Of a stretch of DNA of 64,000 nucleotides, positions 80 through 58,029 are shown piece by piece; positions within the stretch are counted from its first letter, which is position 1; each line of letters opens with the position of its first letter. The notes beneath the pieces were generated by a model. That model saw nothing but the letters and a program-made list of their open reading frames with translations. It was not told the DNA's origin and searched no databases. The DNA lies in assembly GCA_041654895.1 (NCBI GenBank), contig JBAZCR010000004.1, forward strand, positions 1,188 to 65,187. The letters run 5' to 3'. The translations under genes and the position numbers were made by a program. The stretch is from Candidatus Pacearchaeota archaeon. GTDB lineage: Archaea > Nanobdellota > Nanobdellia > Pacearchaeales > GW2011-AR1.

Positions 80-108
80 TTGACTTCACTGTCTACATGA
101 TGTATATT
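80..108 (+). promoter_or_regulatory. early promoter cassette copy 1
   Basis: TTGACT (80-85), 17 nt spacer, TATATT (103-108), then conserved leader AGTACTAGAGATTAAG...AAGGAG. Confidence 0.75.
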
Positions 109-151
109 AGTACTAGAGATTAAGGAAAACATTCAACACAAGGAGTACCAA

Positions 152-991
152 ATGTCCAGATCAATGATAACCAACACCAAAGTAAAATGTGAGATTGAGA
201 AACTCATTGAGATGTTCAAGAGCCCAGAGTCGTTGGAACTTGTTGCCAAAGGTATGTTCTCACGTGGTGCTAATATTCCATCTGATAATTGGTCATATCT
301 CAATCGCATTATTATGTTGTCTCATGGGTATACTGATGCTAGAGGCTTCAAGGCTTGGGGCAAGGTAGGTAGACAATGTAGTAAGGGTGGTTGTTTTTAT
401 ATTCTTGCTCCTAATCTGTTCAAGAAAAAGGTAGTCAACAAAAAGACTAATATTGAGGAAGAAAAGACTATCCTTGCTGGTTTCAGACCAATCCCTGTCT
501 GGCCTTTGGAAAATACTACTGGCAAAGAAGTCACTTATAAAGATCAAGATAAGATGCCTGACTTTATGGGAATTGAGATTGCAGAAAAATGGGGAATCAA
601 AATCACACAAGGATTTCAGAATCCATCATACTATGCTTACTATTCACCAATAAGAAAAGAAATCAAGATGGCTACTGCATCTCAGCAGACGTTCTTTCAC
701 GAACTTGCTCACGCTGCTGATGATAGATTGAATAAGAATCTCAAGGGTGGTCAGGACCCTATACAAGAAATTGTAGCAGAGACTTCTGCTGTTGTCCTTA
801 TGTCAATGTTAGGACTCAAGGCAGGAACTAAAAATGCTTATGATTATGTAAAACGCTATGCCAATCAGAGTGGTAAAGACCCTGCTGATTCCATCATTCC
901 ACTTATTAGTAGAATTGGTAAGATCATCAAGCTTATCCTTGATGAATCCGATTCATTGCAGAAGACCTATAAAAAGGTTGCTAAGAAATAA
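152..991 (+). CDS. ArdC-like antirestriction protein (ssDNA-binding-like N-terminus + HExxH metallopeptidase motif)
   Basis: AAGGAG RBS upstream; FFHELAHAADD contains HExxH; N-terminal YLNRIIM...GFKAWGKVGRQCSKG resembles the ArdC N domain (from memory). Confidence 0.5.
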   Translation: MSRSMITNTKVKCEIEKLIEMFKSPESLELVAKGMFSRGANIPSDNWSYLNRIIMLSHGYTDARGFKAWGKVGRQCSKGGCFYILAPNLFKKKVVNKKTNIEEEKTILAGFRPIPVWPLENTTGKEVTYKDQDKMPDFMGIEIAEKWGIKITQGFQNPSYYAYYSPIRKEIKMATASQQTFFHELAHAADDRLNKNLKGGQDPIQEIVAETSAVVLMSMLGLKAGTKNAYDYVKRYANQSGKDPADSIIPLISRIGKIIKLILDESDSLQKTYKKVAKK

Positions 992-1033
992 TCTCTGGGA
1001 AGTTTCGTTGAATGTACTTCCCACCCCCGAGGT

Positions 1034-1072
1034 CCGGAGAGTTTCGTTGAATGTACTCTCTGGATCTTTTTA
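1034..1072 (+). terminator. rho-independent terminator (second of two tandem hairpins)
   Basis: 9-bp stem CCGGAGAGT/ACTCTCTGG (one G-U), 12-nt loop, then ATCTTTTTA; first hairpin is at 997-1022. Confidence 0.55.
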
Positions 1073-1081
1073 TATATTCGC

Positions 1082-1110
1082 TTGACTTCACTGTCTACAT
1101 GATGTATATT
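1082..1110 (+). promoter_or_regulatory. early promoter cassette copy 2
   Basis: TTGACT 1082-1087, 17 nt, TATATT 1105-1110, same leader as copy 1. Confidence 0.75.
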
Positions 1111-1156
1111 AGTACTAGAGATTAAGAGAACAAACATTTAACATAAGGAGTTTTAA

Positions 1157-1393
1157 ATGACTAAGAAAATCGATATACATATAACTAGATTTTATAATCT
1201 TAATATCCCTGAGGCTTGGATTGAAGTGACGGATAGAAAGACTTTTGATTCTTTTATCATTACCATTAAAAAAGATGGTGTTGATATAGAGTTCTCTAGT
1301 GACTCAGGGTCTAGGTCTTATTTCTTCTTTAATGATTTTGAACTACTTGATACTATTGCTCTACTCAGAAAAGAAATGTCAGAACTTGCTTGA
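1157..1393 (+). CDS. hypothetical early protein
   Basis: AAGGAG RBS; follows promoter copy 2; a degenerate copy of its 3' part lies at 2272-2400. Confidence 0.6.
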   Translation: MTKKIDIHITRFYNLNIPEAWIEVTDRKTFDSFIITIKKDGVDIEFSSDSGSRSYFFFNDFELLDTIALLRKEMSELA

Positions 1394-1418
1394 CTTCACT
1401 GCTACCAAGATGTATATT
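1390..1418 (+). promoter_or_regulatory. early promoter cassette copy 3
   Basis: TTGACT 1390-1395, 17 nt, TATATT 1413-1418; overlaps the stop of the preceding ORF. Confidence 0.75.
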
Positions 1419-1463
1419 AGTACTAGAGATTAAGAGAACAAACATTTAACAAAGGATTTAAAG

Positions 1464-1751
1464 ATGAGTTTTTTTGAAATGTTCATAATGGTTTTGGTTG
1501 TTTTCATAGTAGGACTATTTATCATAAGGACTCTTTGGTCACTGCTTCCCCTGTTGATTGTACTGACTCTGGTTGTCCTTGTTGCCTGGGGATTATATAA
1601 GGCACCCTCGGTATATAATGGCATTGTGAACTGGAGTAAGAATACTGTTAAGGGAACAATAGAATTTATAGAGACTAAACATAATGAGACTACAGAAGAT
1701 GATATCATAAATCTTATTAACTCCACAAAAGAAAGATTCCCAAAGAAATAA
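1464..1751 (+). CDS. small membrane protein
   Basis: Two long hydrophobic stretches (MVLVVFIVGLFII, LLPLLIVLTLVVLVAWGL); follows promoter copy 3. Confidence 0.6.
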   Translation: MSFFEMFIMVLVVFIVGLFIIRTLWSLLPLLIVLTLVVLVAWGLYKAPSVYNGIVNWSKNTVKGTIEFIETKHNETTEDDIINLINSTKERFPKK

Positions 1752-1873
1752 TCATCATGGACAACCAAGATAAAATCAAACATGCAAAATTAAGAGGTGG
1801 TAGACCAACTACCCCACACAAAAATAAGAAACAATACAACAGAAAAAAAGAAAAGAAAAGACTAAATTCAGAC

Positions 1874-1902
1874 TTGACTTCACTGCTTGCATAATATATA
1901 TT
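1874..1902 (+). promoter_or_regulatory. early promoter cassette copy 4
   Basis: TTGACT 1874-1879, 17 nt, TATATT 1897-1902. Confidence 0.75.
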
Positions 1903-1947
1903 AGTACTAGAGATTAAGAGAGTAAACATTCAACAAAGGAAGTATAA

Positions 1948-2256
1948 ATGGAAACCAAAGATGTAAACCTTGATACTGCTATTTTTGTCGCTGAATTGGT
2001 GATTGACATCTTTGAAAAAGAGTTCCCAGAAGACAAACGGCCTCGGAACGCAATCAAGGCAGCACGAGAATATTTATCTAATAAAGATAATACGGCTGCT
2101 CGTGCGGCTGTTGATGAGGCGACTGATATGGCGGCTGATGCGGCACGTGATGTGGCTGCTTATGCAGTTTGTGCGGCTGATCCGGCTCGTGTGAATGATG
2201 CGGCTGACGCGGTGGCTTATGTGTCTCGGTTGATGCGGATTATACAAAAATCATAA
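1948..2256 (+). CDS. Ala/Asp-rich helical protein, Imm-5-like; paralog of 9669..10043
   Basis: EDKRPRNAIKAAREYL followed by an ARAAVDEA...AADAARD helix pattern; local GC far above the genome (37/60 in 2101-2160); family name from memory. Confidence 0.5.
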   Translation: METKDVNLDTAIFVAELVIDIFEKEFPEDKRPRNAIKAAREYLSNKDNTAARAAVDEATDMAADAARDVAAYAVCAADPARVNDAADAVAYVSRLMRIIQKS

Positions 2257-2271
2257 ATTATGGCCTGTCAT

Positions 2272-2400
2272 CATTAAAAAAGATTGGGTTGGTATAGAGT
2301 TCCCAAGTGTTCAGGGTCCAGGGCTTGTTTCTTCATCGATGATTTTGAACTAATAGATACTATCAATACCCTGAAAAAAGAAGTACAAGAAATTGCTTGA
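2272..2400 (+). pseudogene. degenerate partial duplicate of the 3' part of ORF 1157..1393
   Basis: Aligns base-for-base by eye with about 1264-1393, with substitutions and a 1-nt deletion; no start codon; ends in promoter copy 5. Confidence 0.6.
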
Positions 2401-2425
2401 CTTCACTGCCACCAAGATGTATATT
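2397..2425 (+). promoter_or_regulatory. early promoter cassette copy 5 (short-leader variant)
   Basis: TTGACT 2397-2402, 17 nt, TATATT 2420-2425; leader is AGTACTACATTCAACAAA. Confidence 0.7.
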
Positions 2426-2499
2426 AGTACTACATTCAACAAAAGATGTTATTGATAATGTTATTGAACACCCAACATATTCTAACAAATGAGGTATTG

Positions 2500-2967
2500 A
2501 TGAAAACCGAAATAAGAAAAGTTCCTAAACAGAAAGTAATTGAGGATGGATTTGAAGATAAAGAAATTTATATTGCTTATGATGGAAGAGAATTTGATTC
2601 AAAGGATCAAGCAATTAAATATGAAGATGTTTTAAATTTTAAAAAGGAATTTATAAAAAAATATTCATATTCAACAATGGAACTAGATGATCGATATCAC
2701 ATACTTCACATGGATAATGATTCACACTTAAATAGAAATAACAGATTGATTCGGCATGAATTAAGAAACGAATTGAGACAATTCTTTGGGAATTATACAG
2801 GATCAAGGTTTGACATTGAAAAACTAAAAAAAGGATGGAATTTCATTGTTGACAATGAAACTTATGTTAGTATTACATATCCAAGTGAATTAATTACATT
2901 ATATGAAAAAGAAATTAAATTGAATAAAAAATACATTGAACAGATATCCAATCATATTAATCAATAA
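2500..2967 (+). CDS. hypothetical protein
   Basis: ATG at 2500 preceded by GAGG; the track ORF starts earlier at 2446. Confidence 0.55.
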   Translation: MKTEIRKVPKQKVIEDGFEDKEIYIAYDGREFDSKDQAIKYEDVLNFKKEFIKKYSYSTMELDDRYHILHMDNDSHLNRNNRLIRHELRNELRQFFGNYTGSRFDIEKLKKGWNFIVDNETYVSITYPSELITLYEKEIKLNKKYIEQISNHINQ

Positions 2968-2977
2968 TGGGAGTTAA

Positions 2978-3103
2978 ATGAAGGTATCACAAGATATATA
3001 TAAAATGTGTAAACAGATGTTTAGTGTTTTGGAAATAGAATCTTTTGATTGTCTTGATGAATTAGTAATTGATAATATAAAGGAGGTAAAATGTATATCG
3101 TAA
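2978..3103 (+). CDS. small hypothetical protein (41 aa)
   Basis: Hand-translated; GGGAG RBS; below the track length cutoff. Confidence 0.3.
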   Translation: MKVSQDIYKMCKQMFSVLEIESFDCLDELVIDNIKEVKCIS

Positions 3104-3234
3104 TCGAAACTTTCCCCATACAATACGCTCATATAGTACTTGATGAAGACGGAGAACCAAAACTATTCCTCACTCTTGAAGAAGCTGAGAAAGAAAAATC
3201 AGAACTTCACGATGGAAAGATTGTTGAACTATGA
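3091..3234 (+). CDS. small hypothetical protein (47 aa)
   Basis: Hand-translated; strong AAGGAGG RBS 5 nt upstream of the ATG. Confidence 0.4.
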   Translation: MYIVIETFPIQYAHIVLDEDGEPKLFLTLEEAEKEKSELHDGKIVEL

Positions 3235-3423
3235 AACATACAAAAGATAAACAACAAAAGAAACTCGCTATACAGATCATATAAGCAAAGAGTCTACACC
3301 AAACGATCTCATCTAGATAATGCTCATATAAAGAATGTGTGGATACAATATATTATAATATTACACTGATAGAAAGATGTATATTATAGTACTACACTGA
3401 AAAAAAGATGTACTAGAAATTGC

Positions 3424-3452
3424 TTGACTTCACTGCCACCAAGATGTATATT
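3424..3452 (+). promoter_or_regulatory. early promoter cassette copy 6
   Basis: TTGACT 3424-3429, 17 nt, TATATT 3447-3452; partial degenerate promoter fragments lie just upstream (3370-3420). Confidence 0.75.
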
Positions 3453-3481
3453 AGTACTAGAGATTAAGAAAGGAGTTTGAT

Positions 3482-4540
3482 ATGTTTATTACGTTTACTA
3501 AAATTAGAGATTATAAGTCTATTATTGGGGATATCATTCATACAGCAAGATTTGTTGGAATTGATGAGTCTGGTGAACCTATGTATGATAATGATAAAGA
3601 ACTTCCAACACTTACTTTTACTGGCACTTGTAAGCTTCATGGTACTAATGCCAGTGTAGTTCGTTCTCCTAATGGAGACATTTATTTTCAGAGTCGTAGG
3701 GCTGTAATAACACCAATGAAGGACAATGCTGGATTTGCTTTTTTTGCAAAGAGTAATGAATCTATTTTTAATGATTTTTTTGATAAGATCGTTGATAGAT
3801 ATAAAGATTCGAGTGACAAACACATTGCAATTTTTGGTGAATGGTGTGGTGGTAATATTCAGAAGGGAGTTGCAATTTCTGGATTACCTAAGATGTTTGT
3901 AATCTTTGCAGTTAAACTTTCCGAAGAAATTGATGGAGAGATGGTATCTGAATATTTACCAAATCAGTTTTGGAAAGATTTAAATTTTCCAGAATTTAAT
4001 ATTTATAACATTTATGATTTTAAGACTTATAGTATTGATATTGATTTTAATACTCCAAAATATTTTATTAATAAGTTAGTAGAATATACACTTGAAGTCG
4101 AAGATAAGTGTCCTGTTGGGACTCATTTTGGTCGTAGTAGTATTAATGGAGACAATGTAACTGGAGAAGGGATTGTTTGGGAGACTTGGTATAAAGGTAA
4201 TCGGATTATCTTTAAGACTAAGGGTGAAAAACATTCTAGCTCTAAGGTCAAGAAGATTGTTTCAGTAGATACCGAAAAATTAGATTCTATTATGGAATTT
4301 ATTGATTATTCAGTTACCGAGAATCGTTTAAACCAGGCAATTGAACAGGTATTTACTATTAGATCAGTTGAGCCTCATAAGAAACATACTGGGGATTTTA
4401 TTAAATGGATTCATAATGATATTATTGAGGAAGAGTCTGATGTTCTGAATGCAAATGGTTTAGAGTATAAGGATGTTAATAAGGAAATATCTATTAAAGC
4501 AAAAAATTGGTTTTTCAAATATCTCGATTCATTAATTTAA
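3482..4540 (+). CDS. RNA ligase (Rnl2/DraRnl-type nucleotidyltransferase)
   Basis: Motif I KLHGTN, FGEWCGGNIQKG, motif IV EGIVWE, motif V FKTKG. Confidence 0.7.
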   Translation: MFITFTKIRDYKSIIGDIIHTARFVGIDESGEPMYDNDKELPTLTFTGTCKLHGTNASVVRSPNGDIYFQSRRAVITPMKDNAGFAFFAKSNESIFNDFFDKIVDRYKDSSDKHIAIFGEWCGGNIQKGVAISGLPKMFVIFAVKLSEEIDGEMVSEYLPNQFWKDLNFPEFNIYNIYDFKTYSIDIDFNTPKYFINKLVEYTLEVEDKCPVGTHFGRSSINGDNVTGEGIVWETWYKGNRIIFKTKGEKHSSSKVKKIVSVDTEKLDSIMEFIDYSVTENRLNQAIEQVFTIRSVEPHKKHTGDFIKWIHNDIIEEESDVLNANGLEYKDVNKEISIKAKNWFFKYLDSLI

Positions 4541-4596
4541 AGGAGTATTCATACGATGGAACAAGAAAAGAAAATATATAAAATAAAATAAAAGAC

Positions 4597-4625
4597 TTGA
4601 CTTCACTGTCTACATGATGTATATT
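4597..4625 (+). promoter_or_regulatory. early promoter cassette copy 7 (short-leader variant)
   Basis: TTGACT 4597-4602, 17 nt, TATATT 4620-4625; only a 7-codon ORF follows. Confidence 0.7.
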
Positions 4626-4910
4626 AGTACTACATTCAACAAAGGAAGTTCAAGTATGTATAAACCATTATCAGTTTAAGAGGTACTACCCATCTGATCT
4701 TAAATAAAAGGTATTAGTAATTGACTACGGGTATCTGATATCTAATATAAGGAATCCTGTAGTCTCTTCTGTTCTCTCATATGTATATAGAGTAATATAG
4801 GGCAGTACTAAGGGAACTGGTATATGATTATAGGGGACTAGGGGTATATTTGAAAAGCTTGGGATATGTATATATGGGGGACTTTAGGGTATTATCGTAG
4901 GGGGTCATGA

Positions 4911-5403: not shown

Positions 5404-6120
5404 ATGATATATTTAACTGGAGATATACACGGAAGTTTTGATATACATAAATTAAGTTCTGATTATTTTCCTGATGGAAAGAATTTAACTAAGTCCGATT
5501 ATCTGATTATTTTGGGTGATTTTGGATTAGTATGGAAGAGATATCCATCAGATGACGAAAAGTATTGGTTAAATTGGTTAAGTAATAAGCCTTGGACTAC
5601 ATTAGTGGTGCCTGGGAATCACGAAAATTGGGATTTGATTTATGAATTGCCTGAGGAGGAAAAATTTGGTTCAAGGATTCGTAAGGTCAATGATTCTGTA
5701 TATATGTTTAATCGTGGAGAAATTTATACCATAGATGGTTCTACTTTTTTCACAATGGGTGGAGCTTATAGTATAGATAAGTTGCAACGAACCGCAGGTA
5801 TGACTTGGTGGGATCGGGAGCAGCCATCATATTCTGAATATATGTATGGTTTAGATAATTTGGAAAAGAATGGATGGAAAGTGGATTATATTTTAGGTCA
5901 TACTTGTCCAAAGAGTGTAGCGAATGAGTATTGTAATATTCATACATTAAGCAAAGATTTATTACATAAGTGTTTTGTAATGAAATATTTTGATGAAGTG
6001 GTGAGTAAGACTAAGTTTAAAGCTTTTTATTTTGGTCATTGGCACGATGATATGGAGTTATCCTTAAATGATAACCGATATATTATGATGTATTATGGGA
6101 TTAAAAAATTAGGGGATTAA
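5404..6120 (+). CDS. calcineurin-like metallophosphoesterase
   Basis: GDIHG, GDFG, GNHENW and GHWH motifs; ATG at 5404 preceded by AGAGGA (track start is 5350). Confidence 0.75.
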   Translation: MIYLTGDIHGSFDIHKLSSDYFPDGKNLTKSDYLIILGDFGLVWKRYPSDDEKYWLNWLSNKPWTTLVVPGNHENWDLIYELPEEEKFGSRIRKVNDSVYMFNRGEIYTIDGSTFFTMGGAYSIDKLQRTAGMTWWDREQPSYSEYMYGLDNLEKNGWKVDYILGHTCPKSVANEYCNIHTLSKDLLHKCFVMKYFDEVVSKTKFKAFYFGHWHDDMELSLNDNRYIMMYYGIKKLGD

Positions 6121-6127
6121 AAAATGC

Positions 6128-6156
6128 TTGACTTCATTAGTTCCATTAATTATATT
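6128..6156 (+). promoter_or_regulatory. early promoter copy 8 (divergent leader)
   Basis: TTGACT 6128-6133, 17 nt, TATATT 6151-6156. Confidence 0.65.
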
Positions 6157-6509: not shown

Positions 6510-6965
6510 ATGTTTATGTTTGTGTACAAGGGTGTTGAATACAAGTCTAAGGCAGAGGCAGTTAGAGTTTTTTATGATAATGGTAAGTTGTTAGATACTC
6601 CTGAATCTAAGAAAAAGTATGCCAAAGAATTTGGGATGACTGTTCAATCCGTTCACGGAAGGATACGGAATCATTTATCCAAGACTAATAAGTCGGTAAA
6701 GAAAACAAATCTTAAAAAGAACATTGAGAAAAAGATAGCAGAGAATCTTGTTACTAAGAGATATGATGGAAAGAGAGCAGTATATCCAAACAACACCAAG
6801 TCTGATTCAAAAAAGGAGATACACAGTTCAGACCCACATAAGATATATGTAACTTGGGCACCTAATCCTTGGGGATTGCCTATTACTACTCCTCCTATTC
6901 CAGTAATTGATCCAAAATTTAAAAACGAAGAAGAAGCAAGAGAATTTAACACCATTGAAGATTAA
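6510..6965 (+). CDS. putative DNA-binding protein
   Basis: N-terminus (GVEYKSKAEAVRVF...MTVQSVHGRIRNHL) is similar to the next gene; basic centre. Confidence 0.45.
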   Translation: MFMFVYKGVEYKSKAEAVRVFYDNGKLLDTPESKKKYAKEFGMTVQSVHGRIRNHLSKTNKSVKKTNLKKNIEKKIAENLVTKRYDGKRAVYPNNTKSDSKKEIHSSDPHKIYVTWAPNPWGLPITTPPIPVIDPKFKNEEEAREFNTIED

Positions 6966-6997: not shown

Positions 6998-7366
6998 ATG
7001 GCAAAGATTGAATTTGAAGGAAAAGAGTACAAGTCAAGAGCAGAATTGGCAAGAGAATTACTTATGAGAAATACTATGAGAAAATCAGAAATTTCAAAGA
7101 TAACAGGTATTGCAGCTCAAACAGTACATGGAAATTATAAGAGACTTGTTGCATCTGGTAAGATGGAAGATGTTTATCCAGAACTTATTGAAAGATTAGA
7201 TAAAGAAGAGATGGATAAGAGAAATGCTAAGGCGAAAGCAAAAGAGGAAGAGAAGAAGAAAAGAAAAGATGCAAAACTAAGCATTAGAGCAAAAAAGAAA
7301 GAAGCTATTAAAAAGGCGATCTCTAAAACCATTACCAAAAAAGAAACGGTAGAAGAAGTCGAATAG
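6998..7366 (+). CDS. putative DNA-binding protein with Lys-rich tail
   Basis: GKEYKSRAELAREL...IAAQTVHGNYKRLV parallels the 6510 gene; AAGGAG RBS. Confidence 0.45.
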   Translation: MAKIEFEGKEYKSRAELARELLMRNTMRKSEISKITGIAAQTVHGNYKRLVASGKMEDVYPELIERLDKEEMDKRNAKAKAKEEEKKKRKDAKLSIRAKKKEAIKKAISKTITKKETVEEVE

Positions 7367-50272: not shown

Positions 50273-51163
50273 CTACTTTCTAATATCAACATAATCATTA
50301 TATAATTTTTCCTCTAAAGCTTCTATTTTACTTCGAAAGTCTACTAAAGAATCACAAAACATACCAGCAGAATTAGAATGACCACCACCCCAACCAAAGT
50401 CATCTAATACTTTACCAATATCTAATGATTCTAATTGACATCTAACAGAAGCTCTTTCTGTCTTTGGGTTTCTAACTACAACTAACGAATATTTTTCTTC
50501 TTCCATTAATTTATGTGCAATTTCATTAATGAAATGAAATGAATTAACAATACAAGCATTAATCCTTTCAAACTCATAAACATCTAATGTATCGTACATA
50601 TTATAAAATTTATCATCATATTCTTTTAACCATTTCAATTCATCATCTGTAAATTCTGTTCGACCATCTATAAATGATTGTCTAAACTTAACAACCTTAT
50701 ATTTGTGAAACATCAAATCATTTAGTTGTTTACTTCTTTTATCTTTCAAAATCCACATATCATAATCATTGACCAAATAAACAAATTCATCCAAATGAGA
50801 TAATTTTTCATTAAACATTTTTTCAAAAAAATGTTTCGTTAATGTAGTAGCACATACATTCTTATTATCTATCACAAAATGATTATTATTAGGATCGTGC
50901 ATATCTGATGGATGATGATCAATCAATATAATTTTATCAGATAAATATAATAAATTTTTATTCTCTGGATGAACATCAGTTATTATAACATAATCATATT
51001 TACTATAATCAATAGATTCTAATTTTTCATCTATATTATAGAAACTAGTACTGATAAATGTAACATTATCAAATACATTAGCAAGAACAATCTGACATCC
51101 TGCACCATCAAGATCATAATGTGATATGGATAATATCTTAGCATCCCTCGGTATTTTTAACAT
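50273..51163 (-). CDS. DHH-family phosphoesterase (RecJ-like)
   Basis: SHYDLDGAG, DHHP, GGGHSNSAG. Confidence 0.75.
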   Translation of the reverse strand: MLKIPRDAKILSISHYDLDGAGCQIVLANVFDNVTFISTSFYNIDEKLESIDYSKYDYVIITDVHPENKNLLYLSDKIILIDHHPSDMHDPNNNHFVIDNKNVCATTLTKHFFEKMFNEKLSHLDEFVYLVNDYDMWILKDKRSKQLNDLMFHKYKVVKFRQSFIDGRTEFTDDELKWLKEYDDKFYNMYDTLDVYEFERINACIVNSFHFINEIAHKLMEEEKYSLVVVRNPKTERASVRCQLESLDIGKVLDDFGWGGGHSNSAGMFCDSLVDFRSKIEALEEKLYNDYVDIRK

Positions 51164-53884: not shown

Positions 53885-55651
53885 TTAATTAATACTAATG
53901 TTTGAAAAATCATTACTATTCTTCTCAACGTGTATTATATTTTTGAATTGAGAAAAATAATCCTGTTGTTGAAGTCTATGTGATATTATGTAAATACAAA
54001 TATTTGATTCGTGTGTCATATTCTTTAAACTTTTTATTAATTTTTCCAAACCATTTTCATCAATAGCACTGTCTAATAATTCATCAATTATAAGAAGATT
54101 ACAATTCCAATTTGTTAATGTCTTTGTTATTTTAATAAAAGATAATAAGATTGCCATATCAATTCTTTTCTTTTCACCCTCCGAAAAAGAGTAATACGAT
54201 AATTCCCCATCAGAAGAACTGATAGTTCTTATTTTTTCTTCCATCAATTCATTAAATTGAATATTGATAGGTAATTCAAATAATGTTATATAATCATTTA
54301 TATTTTTATTTAGGATTGGAATTAATTTCTTAAACAGATAAGATTTTATGCCATTTTCAGAAAGAATGGCAATTACTATATCATTATTTTTCATTCTTTC
54401 ATTTAATTCTTTCAATTCCTTATGTAAAATTTTATATTCATTAATTTTATCTTCACTCTCTCTTATGATTGATTTAATATCAATATTTAATTTTCTATCT
54501 TTTATTTCTTTTTTTCTTATCATTAAGTCATCTATATTAGAATTGTATAATTTAATTCTATCATTATATCTAATGATGTTATTATTATGGACGTTAATGT
54601 CATTGATTAAATCTTCATATTTAGTGATTTTATCTTCCAATTCCATCCGAATTTGTTTATACTCTTTGATCTTATCGTTTAATTGTTCAATTAACGTATC
54701 AAGTCTGATCAATTCATCGTTTTTATGTTCTTTTGATATGTTGGTATTGCATATAGGGCAAATGGTATGTTTATTTAAAGACTTGATCGTCTTGTTGGAA
54801 TTACTAATTTTGTATTCACATTCATTTATTTTTCCTATTACGAACTCTCTTTTTTCTTTGAGATCATCAATATCAGAAACATTATTATTAATTATTTCTA
54901 TTTCTTTTTTGATGTTTGTTATTGTATCTTCTAATTTTTTAATATCTGATTTTAACTTAGTTAGATTATTGTCTATGTTTTCTAAGTCTATTTTTTTATT
55001 ATTTAGAAAATTATCTTTAGCATTATTTAATTCGGATATTCTTTTCCTCAAACCTTTGATAGTTTCTTTTAAAATATTCAAACTTTTATTTCGTATCTCA
55101 ATATCCACTTTAATATCAGAATTTTCTTTTTTTACATATTTTAACATTTCACCAAATATTTTAATATTAAATATTTGTTCGATGATGTCTCTCTTTTTAT
55201 CTATTGGTTCTGCAAGGAATGGACGATTATGATTAATAGACAATGATATTATCTGTTTGAATAATTTATATTCTAAACCAATAATCTTATCTATCTCACT
55301 TTGATTTAATCGTTTAGATGACAATAATTGTAGTTCTTCATCATTTTTTAATACTTTAAGTGTATTGGGATTTAAATTTCTAATTATTTCGTATTTATCA
55401 TTATCACATTTGAAAACACAAGAAGTCTGCAATCCTTTTTTATTTTTTCTGTTTACAATTTCATTAATATTAATTTTTCTATATGGTCGTCCATATAAAC
55501 AAAACGATAATGTATCTAATATTGCAGATGACTTACCACTACCATTAACTCCTGTTACTAAGTTTAATCCTCGATTAAAATTAATAATAGTTTCTTTATT
55601 TCCGAATGATAAAATATTTTTAAATTTTAATGTTTGAAACTCTATCAGCAT
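53885..55651 (-). CDS. Rad50/SbcC-like ATPase (T4 gp46-like)
   Basis: GVNGSGKSS Walker A, long coiled coil with a CPIC hook, FSEGEKK signature, LLIIDE Walker B. Confidence 0.85.
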   Translation of the reverse strand: MLIEFQTLKFKNILSFGNKETIINFNRGLNLVTGVNGSGKSSAILDTLSFCLYGRPYRKININEIVNRKNKKGLQTSCVFKCDNDKYEIIRNLNPNTLKVLKNDEELQLLSSKRLNQSEIDKIIGLEYKLFKQIISLSINHNRPFLAEPIDKKRDIIEQIFNIKIFGEMLKYVKKENSDIKVDIEIRNKSLNILKETIKGLRKRISELNNAKDNFLNNKKIDLENIDNNLTKLKSDIKKLEDTITNIKKEIEIINNNVSDIDDLKEKREFVIGKINECEYKISNSNKTIKSLNKHTICPICNTNISKEHKNDELIRLDTLIEQLNDKIKEYKQIRMELEDKITKYEDLINDINVHNNNIIRYNDRIKLYNSNIDDLMIRKKEIKDRKLNIDIKSIIRESEDKINEYKILHKELKELNERMKNNDIVIAILSENGIKSYLFKKLIPILNKNINDYITLFELPINIQFNELMEEKIRTISSSDGELSYYSFSEGEKKRIDMAILLSFIKITKTLTNWNCNLLIIDELLDSAIDENGLEKLIKSLKNMTHESNICIYIISHRLQQQDYFSQFKNIIHVEKNSNDFSNISIN

Positions 55652-55850
55652 ATATCAATCCTCCTTATAATAATATTAATATGATATTTTCTGTATAATA
55701 GATCAAGTATTATTTACGTAAAATGTAATAAATCTAATCATTATAAACCATAAGCAAATTAAAAATTTTTTTTATTGACTATTATGTCAGAACATATCTA
55801 ATTTAAAATACATTAAAAAAATATTTTTTAAAATACAACTATAAGTAATA

Positions 55851-56010
55851 GTACTAGTACTTTAAGTTCTAGAGTACTAGTACTTTAAGTTCTAGAGTAC
55901 TAGTACTTTAAGTTCTAGAGTACTAGTACTTTAAGTTCTAGAGTACTAGTACTTTAAGTTCTAGAGTACTAGTACTTTAAGTACTAGTTCTAGAGTACTA
56001 GTACTAGTTC
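55851..56010. repeat. 23-bp iteron array: 5 perfect and about 2 degenerate copies
   Basis: Unit GTACTAGTACTTTAAGTTCTAGA at 55851, 55874, 55897, 55920 and 55943; variant copies run to about 56010. Confidence 0.9.
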
Positions 56011-56113
56011 TTTTTAACTTCGTTAAAAAGAAGGAAACCTTTACGATACAAAATGTCGAATCTGCGATTCGATACTTCGTAATTTTTAATTGTTAAATAT
56101 TAAGGAGTTTAAA

Positions 56114-56527
56114 ATGGATAAAGTTACATTTAAAAAATTAAAAGATTTTACTAAAGATCAGTTAGAATTAAATCCTGATAATGTAATGGAGAAATCTTTA
56201 AAATTCAATAATCTCTATATTCATTATCACAATTTATACGTAAAAGAAAAGAAAATATTGAAAGATATAAATAATAATATGAAGAAAATTTATTCGGAAT
56301 TGTACCATCATTACAAGTTTGGTGAATTTGATTTTAAGTTAGATAACAAACACGAAATCGAAACCTATATATTCGGAAATGATAAGTATTATGATCTTAA
56401 AGTAAAATATGACGAACAGGTAATTTACGTTGATTATTTATTATCTACAATGGAACAAATACAAAAGACTTCATTTCAAATAGGACATTATATAGATTTA
56501 TTAAAAATTAAAAATGGATTGGTTTAA
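56114..56527 (+). CDS. hypothetical protein
   Basis: ATG at 56114 after TAAGGAG. Confidence 0.5.
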   Translation: MDKVTFKKLKDFTKDQLELNPDNVMEKSLKFNNLYIHYHNLYVKEKKILKDINNNMKKIYSELYHHYKFGEFDFKLDNKHEIETYIFGNDKYYDLKVKYDEQVIYVDYLLSTMEQIQKTSFQIGHYIDLLKIKNGLV

Positions 56528-58029
56528 TGGACACGATTTTAGTCGAAAAGTATGATAATGTTTATTTTAAATTGCATTGTAACATAGAACAGAATATGGA
56601 ATTAAAATCCTTTTTTTCTTGTTATGCACCTAATTATAAATATCATCCTAAGTTCAAAGCGAAAATCTGGAATGGTAAAATTAGTTTTTATAATGTAAAA
56701 GAACAATTATTACCAATAGGATTAACATATCAATTGAAAGAATTTTTAAATAGATATGATTATAAAATCAAATTTCTATTTGATCCTAATGAATTAATAA
56801 ATGATATATCAATAGATCAGATAAATGATTTTTATGAAGCTATTTTTAGAAATACAGATTTCTTTCCAAGAGATTATCAACACCAAGCAATATATACTGC
56901 ATTAAAGAAAAAAAGAGGAATTATAGAAAGTCCAACAGCATCAGGAAAATCATTGATTATATATTCAATTATTAGATTTGTTCTTGGAGTTACAGAGGGA
57001 AAAATTTTATTGGTTGTTCCTTCAATATCATTAACTACACAAATGTTTAATGACTTTGTAGAATATGGTTGGTTTGACGCATATGATTACTCAAGTATAT
57101 TGTATTCAGGTAGTAAAAAATATGACAAAAATAAAAGGATATTAATATCTACTTATCAATCACTACATAGAAAAAAAGAGAATTTTTTTGAAGATTTTGA
57201 TTGTGTTATTATCGATGAAACACAACAGGCAAAATCTAATTCTATTAAAACAATACTGCAAAATTGTGTTAATGCTAATTATAGATTTGGATTGACAGGA
57301 ACATTACCTACCGACGTAGCAGACATAAATAATATTTATGGTTATATCGGACCTAAAATATTTTCTTTGAAAAGTAATACTTTAATTGATAAAGGTTTTT
57401 TATCAAAAATCAAAATAGTAAATATGTTAATACAATACTCAGAAGAAGAAAAAAAATTAAATAGGAAAAGAACATTTCCAGAAGAATCAAGAGCTATTGC
57501 AGAAAATACGGATAGAAATAAAGTGATTAAGTATATTGTAAAAAATATAAATAATAAAGATAATACACTAATTTTGTGTGAAAAAATAGATCATTTAAAG
57601 AGTATTAAGGAGTATGTAGATGAAAATTTTAGTGAAACACACGAAATATTTATGATATATGGTAATACTAATGTAGATGAAAGAGAAAAAATACGAAAAT
57701 ATATGAATGAAAATAAATCTGTTATTCTTGTTGCATCATATGGAACAATGTCAACTGGAGTAAATATTAGTAGGATTCATCATATTATTTTTGCATCATC
57801 ATATAAATCAAAAATAAAAGTTTTACAATCAATCGGTAGAGGATTACGTAAACATAAAGAGAAGAGTAAATTAATACTTTGGGATTTAATAGATGATATG
57901 ACTTGGGTTAAAAGAACAGGTAAAATAGGTAAGAATTATGTTTATCAACATTTTGAAGAAAGACTTAAATACTATAAAGAACAAGGGTTCAAATACATTA
58001 GTAAAAAGATAAATTTAAATAAACTTTAA
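56527..58029 (+). CDS. uvsW: SF2 DNA helicase (UvsW-like)
   Basis: SPTASGKS, IIDETQ, GLTGT, QSIGRGLR. Confidence 0.7.
   Translation: MDTILVEKYDNVYFKLHCNIEQNMELKSFFSCYAPNYKYHPKFKAKIWNGKISFYNVKEQLLPIGLTYQLKEFLNRYDYKIKFLFDPNELINDISIDQINDFYEAIFRNTDFFPRDYQHQAIYTALKKKRGIIESPTASGKSLIIYSIIRFVLGVTEGKILLVVPSISLTTQMFNDFVEYGWFDAYDYSSILYSGSKKYDKNKRILISTYQSLHRKKENFFEDFDCVIIDETQQAKSNSIKTILQNCVNANYRFGLTGTLPTDVADINNIYGYIGPKIFSLKSNTLIDKGFLSKIKIVNMLIQYSEEEKKLNRKRTFPEESRAIAENTDRNKVIKYIVKNINNKDNTLILCEKIDHLKSIKEYVDENFSETHEIFMIYGNTNVDEREKIRKYMNENKSVILVASYGTMSTGVNISRIHHIIFASSYKSKIKVLQSIGRGLRKHKEKSKLILWDLIDDMTWVKRTGKIGKNYVYQHFEERLKYYKEQGFKYISKKINLNKL

Follow-up and report, generated by a model that had tools for sequence, protein, structure and literature searches.

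A palindromic repeat module of conserved position and variable sequence between gp46 and uvsY of uncultured T4-like phages as a candidate origin or control element

The window analyzed here, a 64-kb (64,000-nucleotide) stretch of contig C4, belongs to a T4-like phage of 28% G+C contained in a 756-kb bin. Its T4-like gene set comprises gp43, gp47, gp55, gp46, uvsY and uvsW. The contig probably entered the bin owing to its low G+C content and does not count as evidence of an archaeal host. The signals of the phage are bacterial sigma70-type promoters, Shine-Dalgarno sites and T4 late promoters. A megablast comparison of the control and early regions to annotated phage records returned no DNA similarity, a UvsY profile search of the species genomes yielded no relatives, and a close gp46 was absent from other genomes of the bin's genus.

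A block of leftward genes reaching to position 55651 encodes a family-B DNA polymerase with an intein, a DHH phosphoesterase, a glycosyltransferase, gp47, gp55 and, as the first gene of this replication/recombination block, gp46. The rightward block consists of uvsY, uvsW and virion genes. The divergent gap between gp46 and uvsY measures 462 bp and harbors the repeat array, as the sequence-only reading had stated when it placed the repeats between a leftward and a rightward gene module. The features of this region are the following:

53885–55651, minus strand: gp46, SbcC-like recombination nuclease subunit (PHROG 77, E 1.5e-94; Pfam AAA_23, SMC_N)
55670–55722, minus strand: two overlapping weak sigma70-like promoter candidates for gp46 (TTTACG-16-TATTAT and TATACA-16-TATTAT; consensus matches only)
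55775–55804, plus strand: P1, a rightward promoter-like site (-35 box TTGACT at 55775–55780; weak -10 box CTAATT/TAATTT at 55798–55804)
55805–55849, no strand: very A+T-rich stretch resembling a DNA unwinding element by duplex free energy, ending in ACTATAAGTAAT
55850–55964, no strand: five perfect head-to-tail 23-bp units AGTACTAGTACTTTAAGTTCTAG (direct reading and Tandem Repeats Finder)
55965–56007, no strand: variant units, namely unit 6 with a 6-bp TACTAG insertion (55965–55993) and truncated unit 7 (55994–56007)
56008–56032, plus strand: hairpin 1, TTCTTTTTAAC-TTC-GTTAAAAAGAA, with an 11-bp stem and the loop TTC (from folding)
56056–56072, plus strand: hairpin 2, TCGAATC-TGC-GATTCGA, followed by TACTTCGTA and a T5 run
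56114–56527, plus strand: uvsY, recombination mediator (Pfam UvsY, PHROG 231)
56527–58029, plus strand: uvsW helicase (Pfam UvsW_N, ResIII, Helicase_C)

P1, a sigma70-type site without a MotA box that is preceded by an A/T tract, would function as the rightward promoter. Its -35 box and the neighboring CAGAACATATC are conserved between the window and a relative (L010, see below), and counterparts are present in L015, L016 and L018 (TTGACA-17-GATATT) as well as in L005 and L070 (TTGACA followed by a TATAT-type -10 box). The least stable DNA of the gap spans positions 55800–55859, at about the 99th percentile of the window, with a 40-bp duplex free energy of -38.0 kcal/mol at 55800–55839 compared to a window mean of -45.4 and a 99th percentile of -38.4. 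Within ACTATAAGTAAT, the octamer TATAAGTA (55840–55847) matches the T4-type late promoter TATAAATA, which is common upstream of genes in this phage, in seven of eight positions. ACTATAAGTAAT is conserved in L010, where each of its two copies adjoins a repeat block.

The 11-bp-stem hairpin that had been noted behind the array was recovered as hairpin 1. Its pairing is kept in L010 despite changes on both arms (TTTCTTTATTAC-TTC-GTAATAAAGAAA), and that of hairpin 2 is kept in L010 (TCGAACC/GGTTCGA) as well as in L015, L016 and L018 (GGATTC/GAATCC, GGATGC/GCATCC); between the window and L010 the hairpin stems exhibit compensatory changes. The uvsY ribosome-binding site comes last in the gap, after hairpin 2 and its T-run. 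In L013/L014 (TCGAACC-GAA-GGTTCGA), which encode the same UvsY protein as L010, hairpin 2 carries the loop of L010 (TCGAACC-TTC-GGTTCGA at 5940–5965) in inverted orientation, and this inversion is a signature of template switching at the hairpin.

Tandem Repeats Finder reported a period of 23 with 6.0 copies and 99% matches at 55850–55987. The count of five perfect and about two variant copies given in the sequence-only reading was reproduced, its unit being the same sequence in another phase, and its description of a unit built of palindromes proved accurate: each unit carries the 12-bp palindrome AGTACTAGTACT, and TCTAGA arises at the unit junctions. The 158 bp of the array contain 15 of the 68 CTAG tetramers in the window. 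This total is itself a strong depletion compared to the 108–163 expected, and elsewhere CTAG was encountered zero times in 7 kb of L009 and three times in the 12 kb of L010 outside the gap, which suggests selection in the host against the word or against a longer site holding it. With a duplex stability near average (-43.4 vs. a mean of -45.4 kcal/mol per 40 bp), the array itself was rejected as an unwinding element. Its single strand is strongly self-complementary (z = -5.3); folding of the array gave no single dominant structure, the centroid being unpaired except for hairpin 1, and Rfam returned no family at gathering score, with sub-threshold hairpin-like matches only.

In the other intergenic regions of the 64-kb window Tandem Repeats Finder detected no similar array, only coding repeats. 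The 23-bp unit was not found in IMG/VR, and its single match in a Ruminococcus genome was located in coding sequence and attributed to chance. Parts of the unit (ACTAGTTC, GTTCTAGA and ACTTTAAG) are present in relatives at this locus, each in single copy; the array therefore grew in place, and an import of the unit from a promoter leader was rejected on the same grounds. The array may resemble TrpR-like CTAG-N4-CTAG sites; no TrpR-like protein was present among the 20 proteins scanned.

Six other assemblies encoding an identical UvsY protein were compared for the length of the array; three of their contigs break inside it. The window phage is represented in the assemblies ERZ27247346, ERZ27247361 and ERZ27247376 and in JGI 3300015214 and 3300014206. 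Between identical flanks the array measured 158, 112 or 66 bp, corresponding to five, three or one perfect units, and wherever a contig spans the array the upstream flank was identical over 198 of 198 bp in these independent assemblies. The variant units were the same in all assemblies of the window phage and only the number of perfect units changed. Judged from assemblies, this change in copy number is the behavior of a minisatellite (variable-number tandem repeat).

Contigs of relatives were reached through UvsY homologues. L010, a 46-kb contig of assembly ERZ27301260, has the gene order of the window and a protein identity to it of about 75% (gp46 74%, gp47 77%, UvsW 86% and UvsY 91%). In its 454-bp gap P1, ACTATAAGTAAT (twice) and both hairpins are kept. 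Its array follows the form (AAAGCT AAAGCT WT)n with AGCTTTAAAGCT palindromes and is unrelated to the window unit; a match of this unit in an IMG/VR contig was again in coding sequence and regarded as chance. CTAG occurs four times in the 454-bp gap vs. three times in the other 12 kb of L010. Array 9-mers were compared to the rest of the loci L010, L015 and G041, and none were shared beyond A/T-rich words.

The window array is one version of a conserved non-coding module of uncultured T4-like phages, mostly of low G+C. One architecture recurs in about 12 lineages in which gp46 and uvsY diverge: a sigma70-type promoter (in most lineages) is followed by about 45 bp of very A+T-rich DNA, often holding the late-promoter box TATAAATA, palindromic repeats, one to three stable hairpins and the next gene. 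A stable hairpin follows the repeats in every lineage examined. The gp46-like gene is located divergently upstream in 11 lineages; in two further contigs the sequence stops within the gap. The module keeps its position, flanks and hairpins, while the repeat unit is replaced between lineages and the copy number drifts in near-identical genomes. Unit length ranges from 9 to about 60 bp and the unit types include CTTAAG and GGGCCC. The palindromic words are rare elsewhere; CTAG is underrepresented in these genomes as a whole and clusters in the gap. In addition to those of the window and L010, the following repeats were recorded:

L015, L016 and L018 (UvsY identity to the window 69–73%): AGTTAGTTA, GTTTAAAACTA, ACTAGT and GAACTTTAG
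L005 (gp46 identity 48%): twelve CTTAAG-type hexamers (two of them CTTAAA), mostly 10–11 bp apart, and the 16-bp palindrome CTTAAGGGCCCTTAAG
L059: AGCTTTTAAAAGCT and ACCTTAAGGT
L060: GGTCC/GGACC runs
L065: TAACCTAGGTTA
L066: a unit of about 60 bp in 2.5 copies with CTAGGTACCTAG; also AGCTTTTAAAAGCT
L067: a 24-bp unit in five perfect copies, for which direct reading gives the consensus ACCCTGGGTTACTCTAGGTTTAAA
L070: palindromes of the GGTCCTAGGACC type, with a GC-rich hairpin and a T-run behind them
L072, within the complete 264-kb genome G042: three copies of TGACCGGTCA
L073: four copies of CTAGTACTAG

The sole GGGCCCTT site outside the L005 array was coding and was discarded. G042 (IMGVR_UViG_3300018080_000099) is a distant member of the clade with a UvsY identity of 42%, and three of the four copies of its local palindrome GACCGGTC are located in the gap. 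Long acidic coding repeats were also observed in this genome at 171–173 kb and 220 kb. In L067 an HNH homing-endonuclease-like gene (1300–2080) is inserted between the repeat-plus-hairpin module and uvsY, which indicates that the module stays with the gp46 side of the gap. Cyanophages such as S-PM2, the nearest cultured relatives, carry uvsY and gp46 on one strand and have no such gap.

We consider it possible, with a probability of roughly 40%, that the array module would be a cis-acting DNA element of an origin or control region, selected as a block of tandem palindromes. Selection would act on this block and not on the word itself, and the block would offer either a set of binding sites for a dimeric, rapidly co-evolving protein or DNA that easily opens or extrudes hairpins. 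The anatomy, the kept position, the turnover of units, the change in copy number and the missing co-variation are seen in the sequences themselves, whereas promoter activity, origin function and any protein binding are inferred. The common architecture with unrelated units, the conserved flanks with their compensatory stem changes, the rarity of the palindromic words elsewhere and the self-complementary single strand of the array speak for such an element. The cumulative GC-skew minimum of the window falls at 55839, where transcription diverges, and coincides with a change of gene orientation that confounds it; the gap of G042 is located at an interior skew minimum that is likewise confounded by gene orientation. 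As would be expected of an oriF-type origin, an A+T-rich element is found directly downstream of a promoter, the candidate P1. The alternative raised in the sequence-only reading, an iteron-type origin, stays viable: several direct repeats in the range of about 12–23 bp (five perfect and two variant 23-bp units) adjoin a putative A+T-rich unwinding region at a point of divergence, just behind a conserved promoter-like site, and equivalent blocks take the corresponding place in about 12 lineages. Its protein partner did not emerge: no initiator and no Rep-like family was found among the 20 proteins scanned from a genome represented by 66 kb only, and no co-varying DNA-binding gene was identified, the gap being flanked by gp46 and uvsY. 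Several points count against an origin or control element. The array itself is of near-average duplex stability, unit lengths of 9 to about 60 bp are incompatible with a common helical phasing, and the presence of one to five perfect units in near-identical genomes argues for weak constraint. Since cyanophages are without the divergent gap, the positional analogy to T4 oriF rests only on the adjacency to uvsY.

In T4, oriF, also termed ori(uvsY), consists of a middle-mode, MotA-dependent promoter and a downstream A+T-rich unwinding element of interchangeable sequence, is primed by an R-loop and, like other T4 origins, is located at a point of transcriptional divergence (PMC3016281). The module of the window resembles it in lying immediately upstream of uvsY and near uvsW, at a transcriptional divergence with a skew switch, and in that the gap's least stable A+T-rich DNA comes directly behind P1; an interchangeable unwinding element would also fit the rapid turnover seen in the phage clade. 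It differs from oriF in that its promoter is of the sigma70 type without a MotA box, in that it has an array whereas oriF is without tandem repeats, in the gene order, which differs in its nearest cultured relatives, and in being known from sequence alone. T4 oriE contains 12-nt iterons of unknown role that are present at the syntenic site in relatives (PMC3016281). Both loci have direct repeats at a putative T4-type origin that are syntenic in relatives and without a demonstrated binder. However, oriE adjoins repEA/repEB, and the window-type units are contiguous, palindromic, lineage-specific and not conserved. Operator and centromere arrays bound by dimeric proteins are comparable repeat systems. 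Together with plasmid iteron origins, of which the R6K gamma origin is an example (PMC3016281), they share with the module multiple repeats of 17–23 bp beside an A+T-rich region and sequences that differ between related replicons, but the window array has no adjacent Rep, ParR or repressor gene and its copy number is not fixed.

Among the rival explanations, a lineage-specific operator array is unlikely, though together with a neutral origin of the repeats the least unlikely. According to the operator explanation a co-evolving dimeric regulator would control the divergent gp46 and uvsY/uvsW genes through a roadblock or looping, with no role in replication. Three to 12 palindromic sites of lineage-specific sequence in a divergent promoter region, the twelve CTTAAG-type hexamers of L005 with most of them 10–11 bp apart, and words almost unique to the gap locus are consistent with such an arrangement, which resembles the immunity operators of lambdoid phages. 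On the other hand, no regulator gene flanks the site, the number of sites varies between identical genomes, the periods extend from 9 to about 60 bp, and the perfect identity of the tandem units (5 x 23 bp in the window, 5 x 24 bp in L067) points to recent slippage and not to maintained operators.

An equally unlikely explanation is a neutral minisatellite in an insertion-tolerant gap, in which hairpin DNA would provoke slippage and template switching and the turnover of units would be functionless. The lengths of 66, 112 or 158 bp between identical flanks, the complete turnover of units, the growth of the array in place from single-copy parts and the hairpin 2 loop inversion between L010 and L013/L014 are in keeping with it. 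Against it stand the recurrence of the blocks at one spot in about 12 lineages, the lack of any other intergenic array in the 64-kb window and the fact that the blocks are made of palindromes otherwise avoided by the genomes.

A function at the RNA level is clearly less likely still. P1 or the late-type TATAAGTA would drive a structured 5' leader or a short non-coding RNA, with the hairpins acting as stabilizers or as a partial terminator before uvsY. The promoter-like site upstream, the late-promoter box adjoining the array, the compensatory changes in the hairpin stems and the T-runs after the last hairpin, which occur on the plus strand only (window, L010, L016, L018 and L070), point in this direction. 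The RNA sequence, however, is not conserved, no Rfam family was reached at threshold, and the array has no single dominant fold, with hairpin 1 alone being paired in the centroid.

Just as doubtful is a bolder version of the origin reading, in which a clade-wide "palindrome cassette" between gp46/47 and uvsY/uvsW would be a programmed, sequence-independent and structure-defined initiation element. Its sole conserved property would be tandem palindromes of genome-avoided words. The SbcCD-like gp46/47 encoded next to it might cut an extruded hairpin or cruciform, or an R-loop might stabilize the displaced strand. In either case the cassette would start replication that depends on an origin or on recombination, or would load the sliding clamp used in late transcription.

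The remaining explanation concerns a possible link between the array and the early region of the window, which involves the following sites:

80–4640, plus strand: seven near-identical early promoter cassettes, gcTTGACTtcactg-N11-TATATT-AGTACTA
51045–51052, minus strand: isolated AGTACTAG, a chance site inside the DHH-phosphoesterase coding sequence

The -35 boxes of the cassettes start at 80, 1082, 1390, 1874, 2397, 3424 and 4597. TATATT followed by AGTACTA is present in all seven, with G as the next letter in five, so that AGTACTAG directly follows TATATT at 109, 1111, 1419, 1903 and 3453; the placement of this word behind the -10 box of five early promoters, as claimed from the sequence, was thus borne out. 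The eighth early promoter, at 6128, is without AGTACTAG. In a count over the window and the bin, AGTACTAG occurs 22 times in the window (16 in the array, five in early promoters and one in coding sequence) vs. 0.96 expected and only once in the other 690 kb of the bin. This excess is produced by two duplicated sequence families, the cassette and the array, and not by many independent sites. The genes behind the cassettes are typical early genes encoding an ArdC-like anti-restriction protein, an Imm5-like protein, RNA ligase 2 and a phosphoesterase. For the first of them (152–991, plus strand), an ArdC-like zincin/anti-restriction protein, Pfam MPTase-PolyVal was below cut-off and PHROG 7245 was assigned.

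The cassettes at 2397–2450 and 4597–4650 are without a 20-nt leader piece present in the other five (AGTAC[TAGAGATTAAGAGAACAAAC]ATTCAACA), and this short-leader form is the one conserved in the relative L042. A 31-bp tandem repeat at 3349–3412 resembles degenerate copies of the cassette -10 box and leader (TATATTATAGTACTACACTG). A search of IMG/VR with the early-promoter pattern returned coding matches only, which were attributed to chance. In T4-type phages near-identical early cassettes are known as PeSLs, strong sigma70-like early promoters that extend from the -35 box to the ribosome-binding site in a plastic early region and are kept alike by recombination (PMC2839356, PMC4122927). The window shares with them seven near-identical sigma70-like promoters in a plastic early region, and its cassette is conserved in L042; it differs in having its own conserved start-site word, AGTACTA. 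PeSLs are defined by a terminator stem-loop directly upstream of the promoter, and the window cassettes are PeSL-like candidates.

L042 is the early region of an L010-type phage and was found via RNA ligase 2 (75% identity) in assembly ERZ27301260; a second pair of array and early region was provided by L043 and L011, both from run SRR7083930. The early promoters of L042 read gcTTGACTtcacgg...TATATT-AGTACTAcattcaacaaagg and TATATT-AGTACTT, and the AAAGCT motif of the L010 array is absent from this region. Two paralogous small early proteins of the window (6510–6965 and 6998–7366, plus strand) are predicted to consist of an N-terminal beta-hairpin and a three-helix domain (pLDDT 81–92) that is weakly similar to homeodomain-type HTH folds (Foldseek E of at least 0.5). 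They have homologues in L040 and L042 and no Pfam or PHROG family, and as candidate array binders these predicted HTH-like proteins remain a lead, not evidence.

The sequence-only reading had proposed that a single DNA-binding protein recognizes AGTACTAG, represses the early promoters and is recruited to or titrated at the array. The word common to promoters and array with just one coding site elsewhere in the window and one in 690 kb, the AGTACT-containing palindromes also present in the L073 and L009 arrays, and the two early paralogs with their predicted three-helix HTH-like domain favor such a common operator. To assess the match, one cassette was aligned locally with the tandem unit against composition-shuffled units and random genomic 23-mers as nulls. 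The score of 17 was reached by 317 of 2000 shuffled units and 351 of 2000 random 23-mers, and since 16–18% of the controls attain it this single cassette-unit match is not significant. In the L010/L042 relative AGTACTA is kept at the early promoters while the array is unrelated; the promoter word is retained as the array word is replaced, which is the opposite of what would be expected of a common binding protein. Between the window phage and this relative the HTH paralog keeps its putative recognition helix, which hence does not track the array. Furthermore, the array begins about 45 bp downstream of P1 and not at a transcription start site, and in G042, with three of the four genome-wide GACCGGTC copies in one gap, the palindrome is a single-locus site rather than a global operator. 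With a match at chance level and promoter and array words that do not co-vary, the shared-regulator model was not supported and is the least probable of all explanations considered. The AGTACTAG match between array and early promoters looks like a coincidence and not like a shared protein-binding site; the word itself is not a functional link to the early promoters, where AGTACTA is part of a conserved duplicated cassette. As a caution, the striking enrichment of this word comes down to two duplicated families with one 8-mer in common.

What this comparison of sequences adds of most use is that the palindromic repeat module between gp46 and uvsY keeps its place across the clade while its sequence varies. 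T4-type origins are poorly defined outside T4, and the module would represent a testable candidate origin or control element of large uncultured T4-like phages from low-oxygen, sediment and freshwater-type metagenomes.
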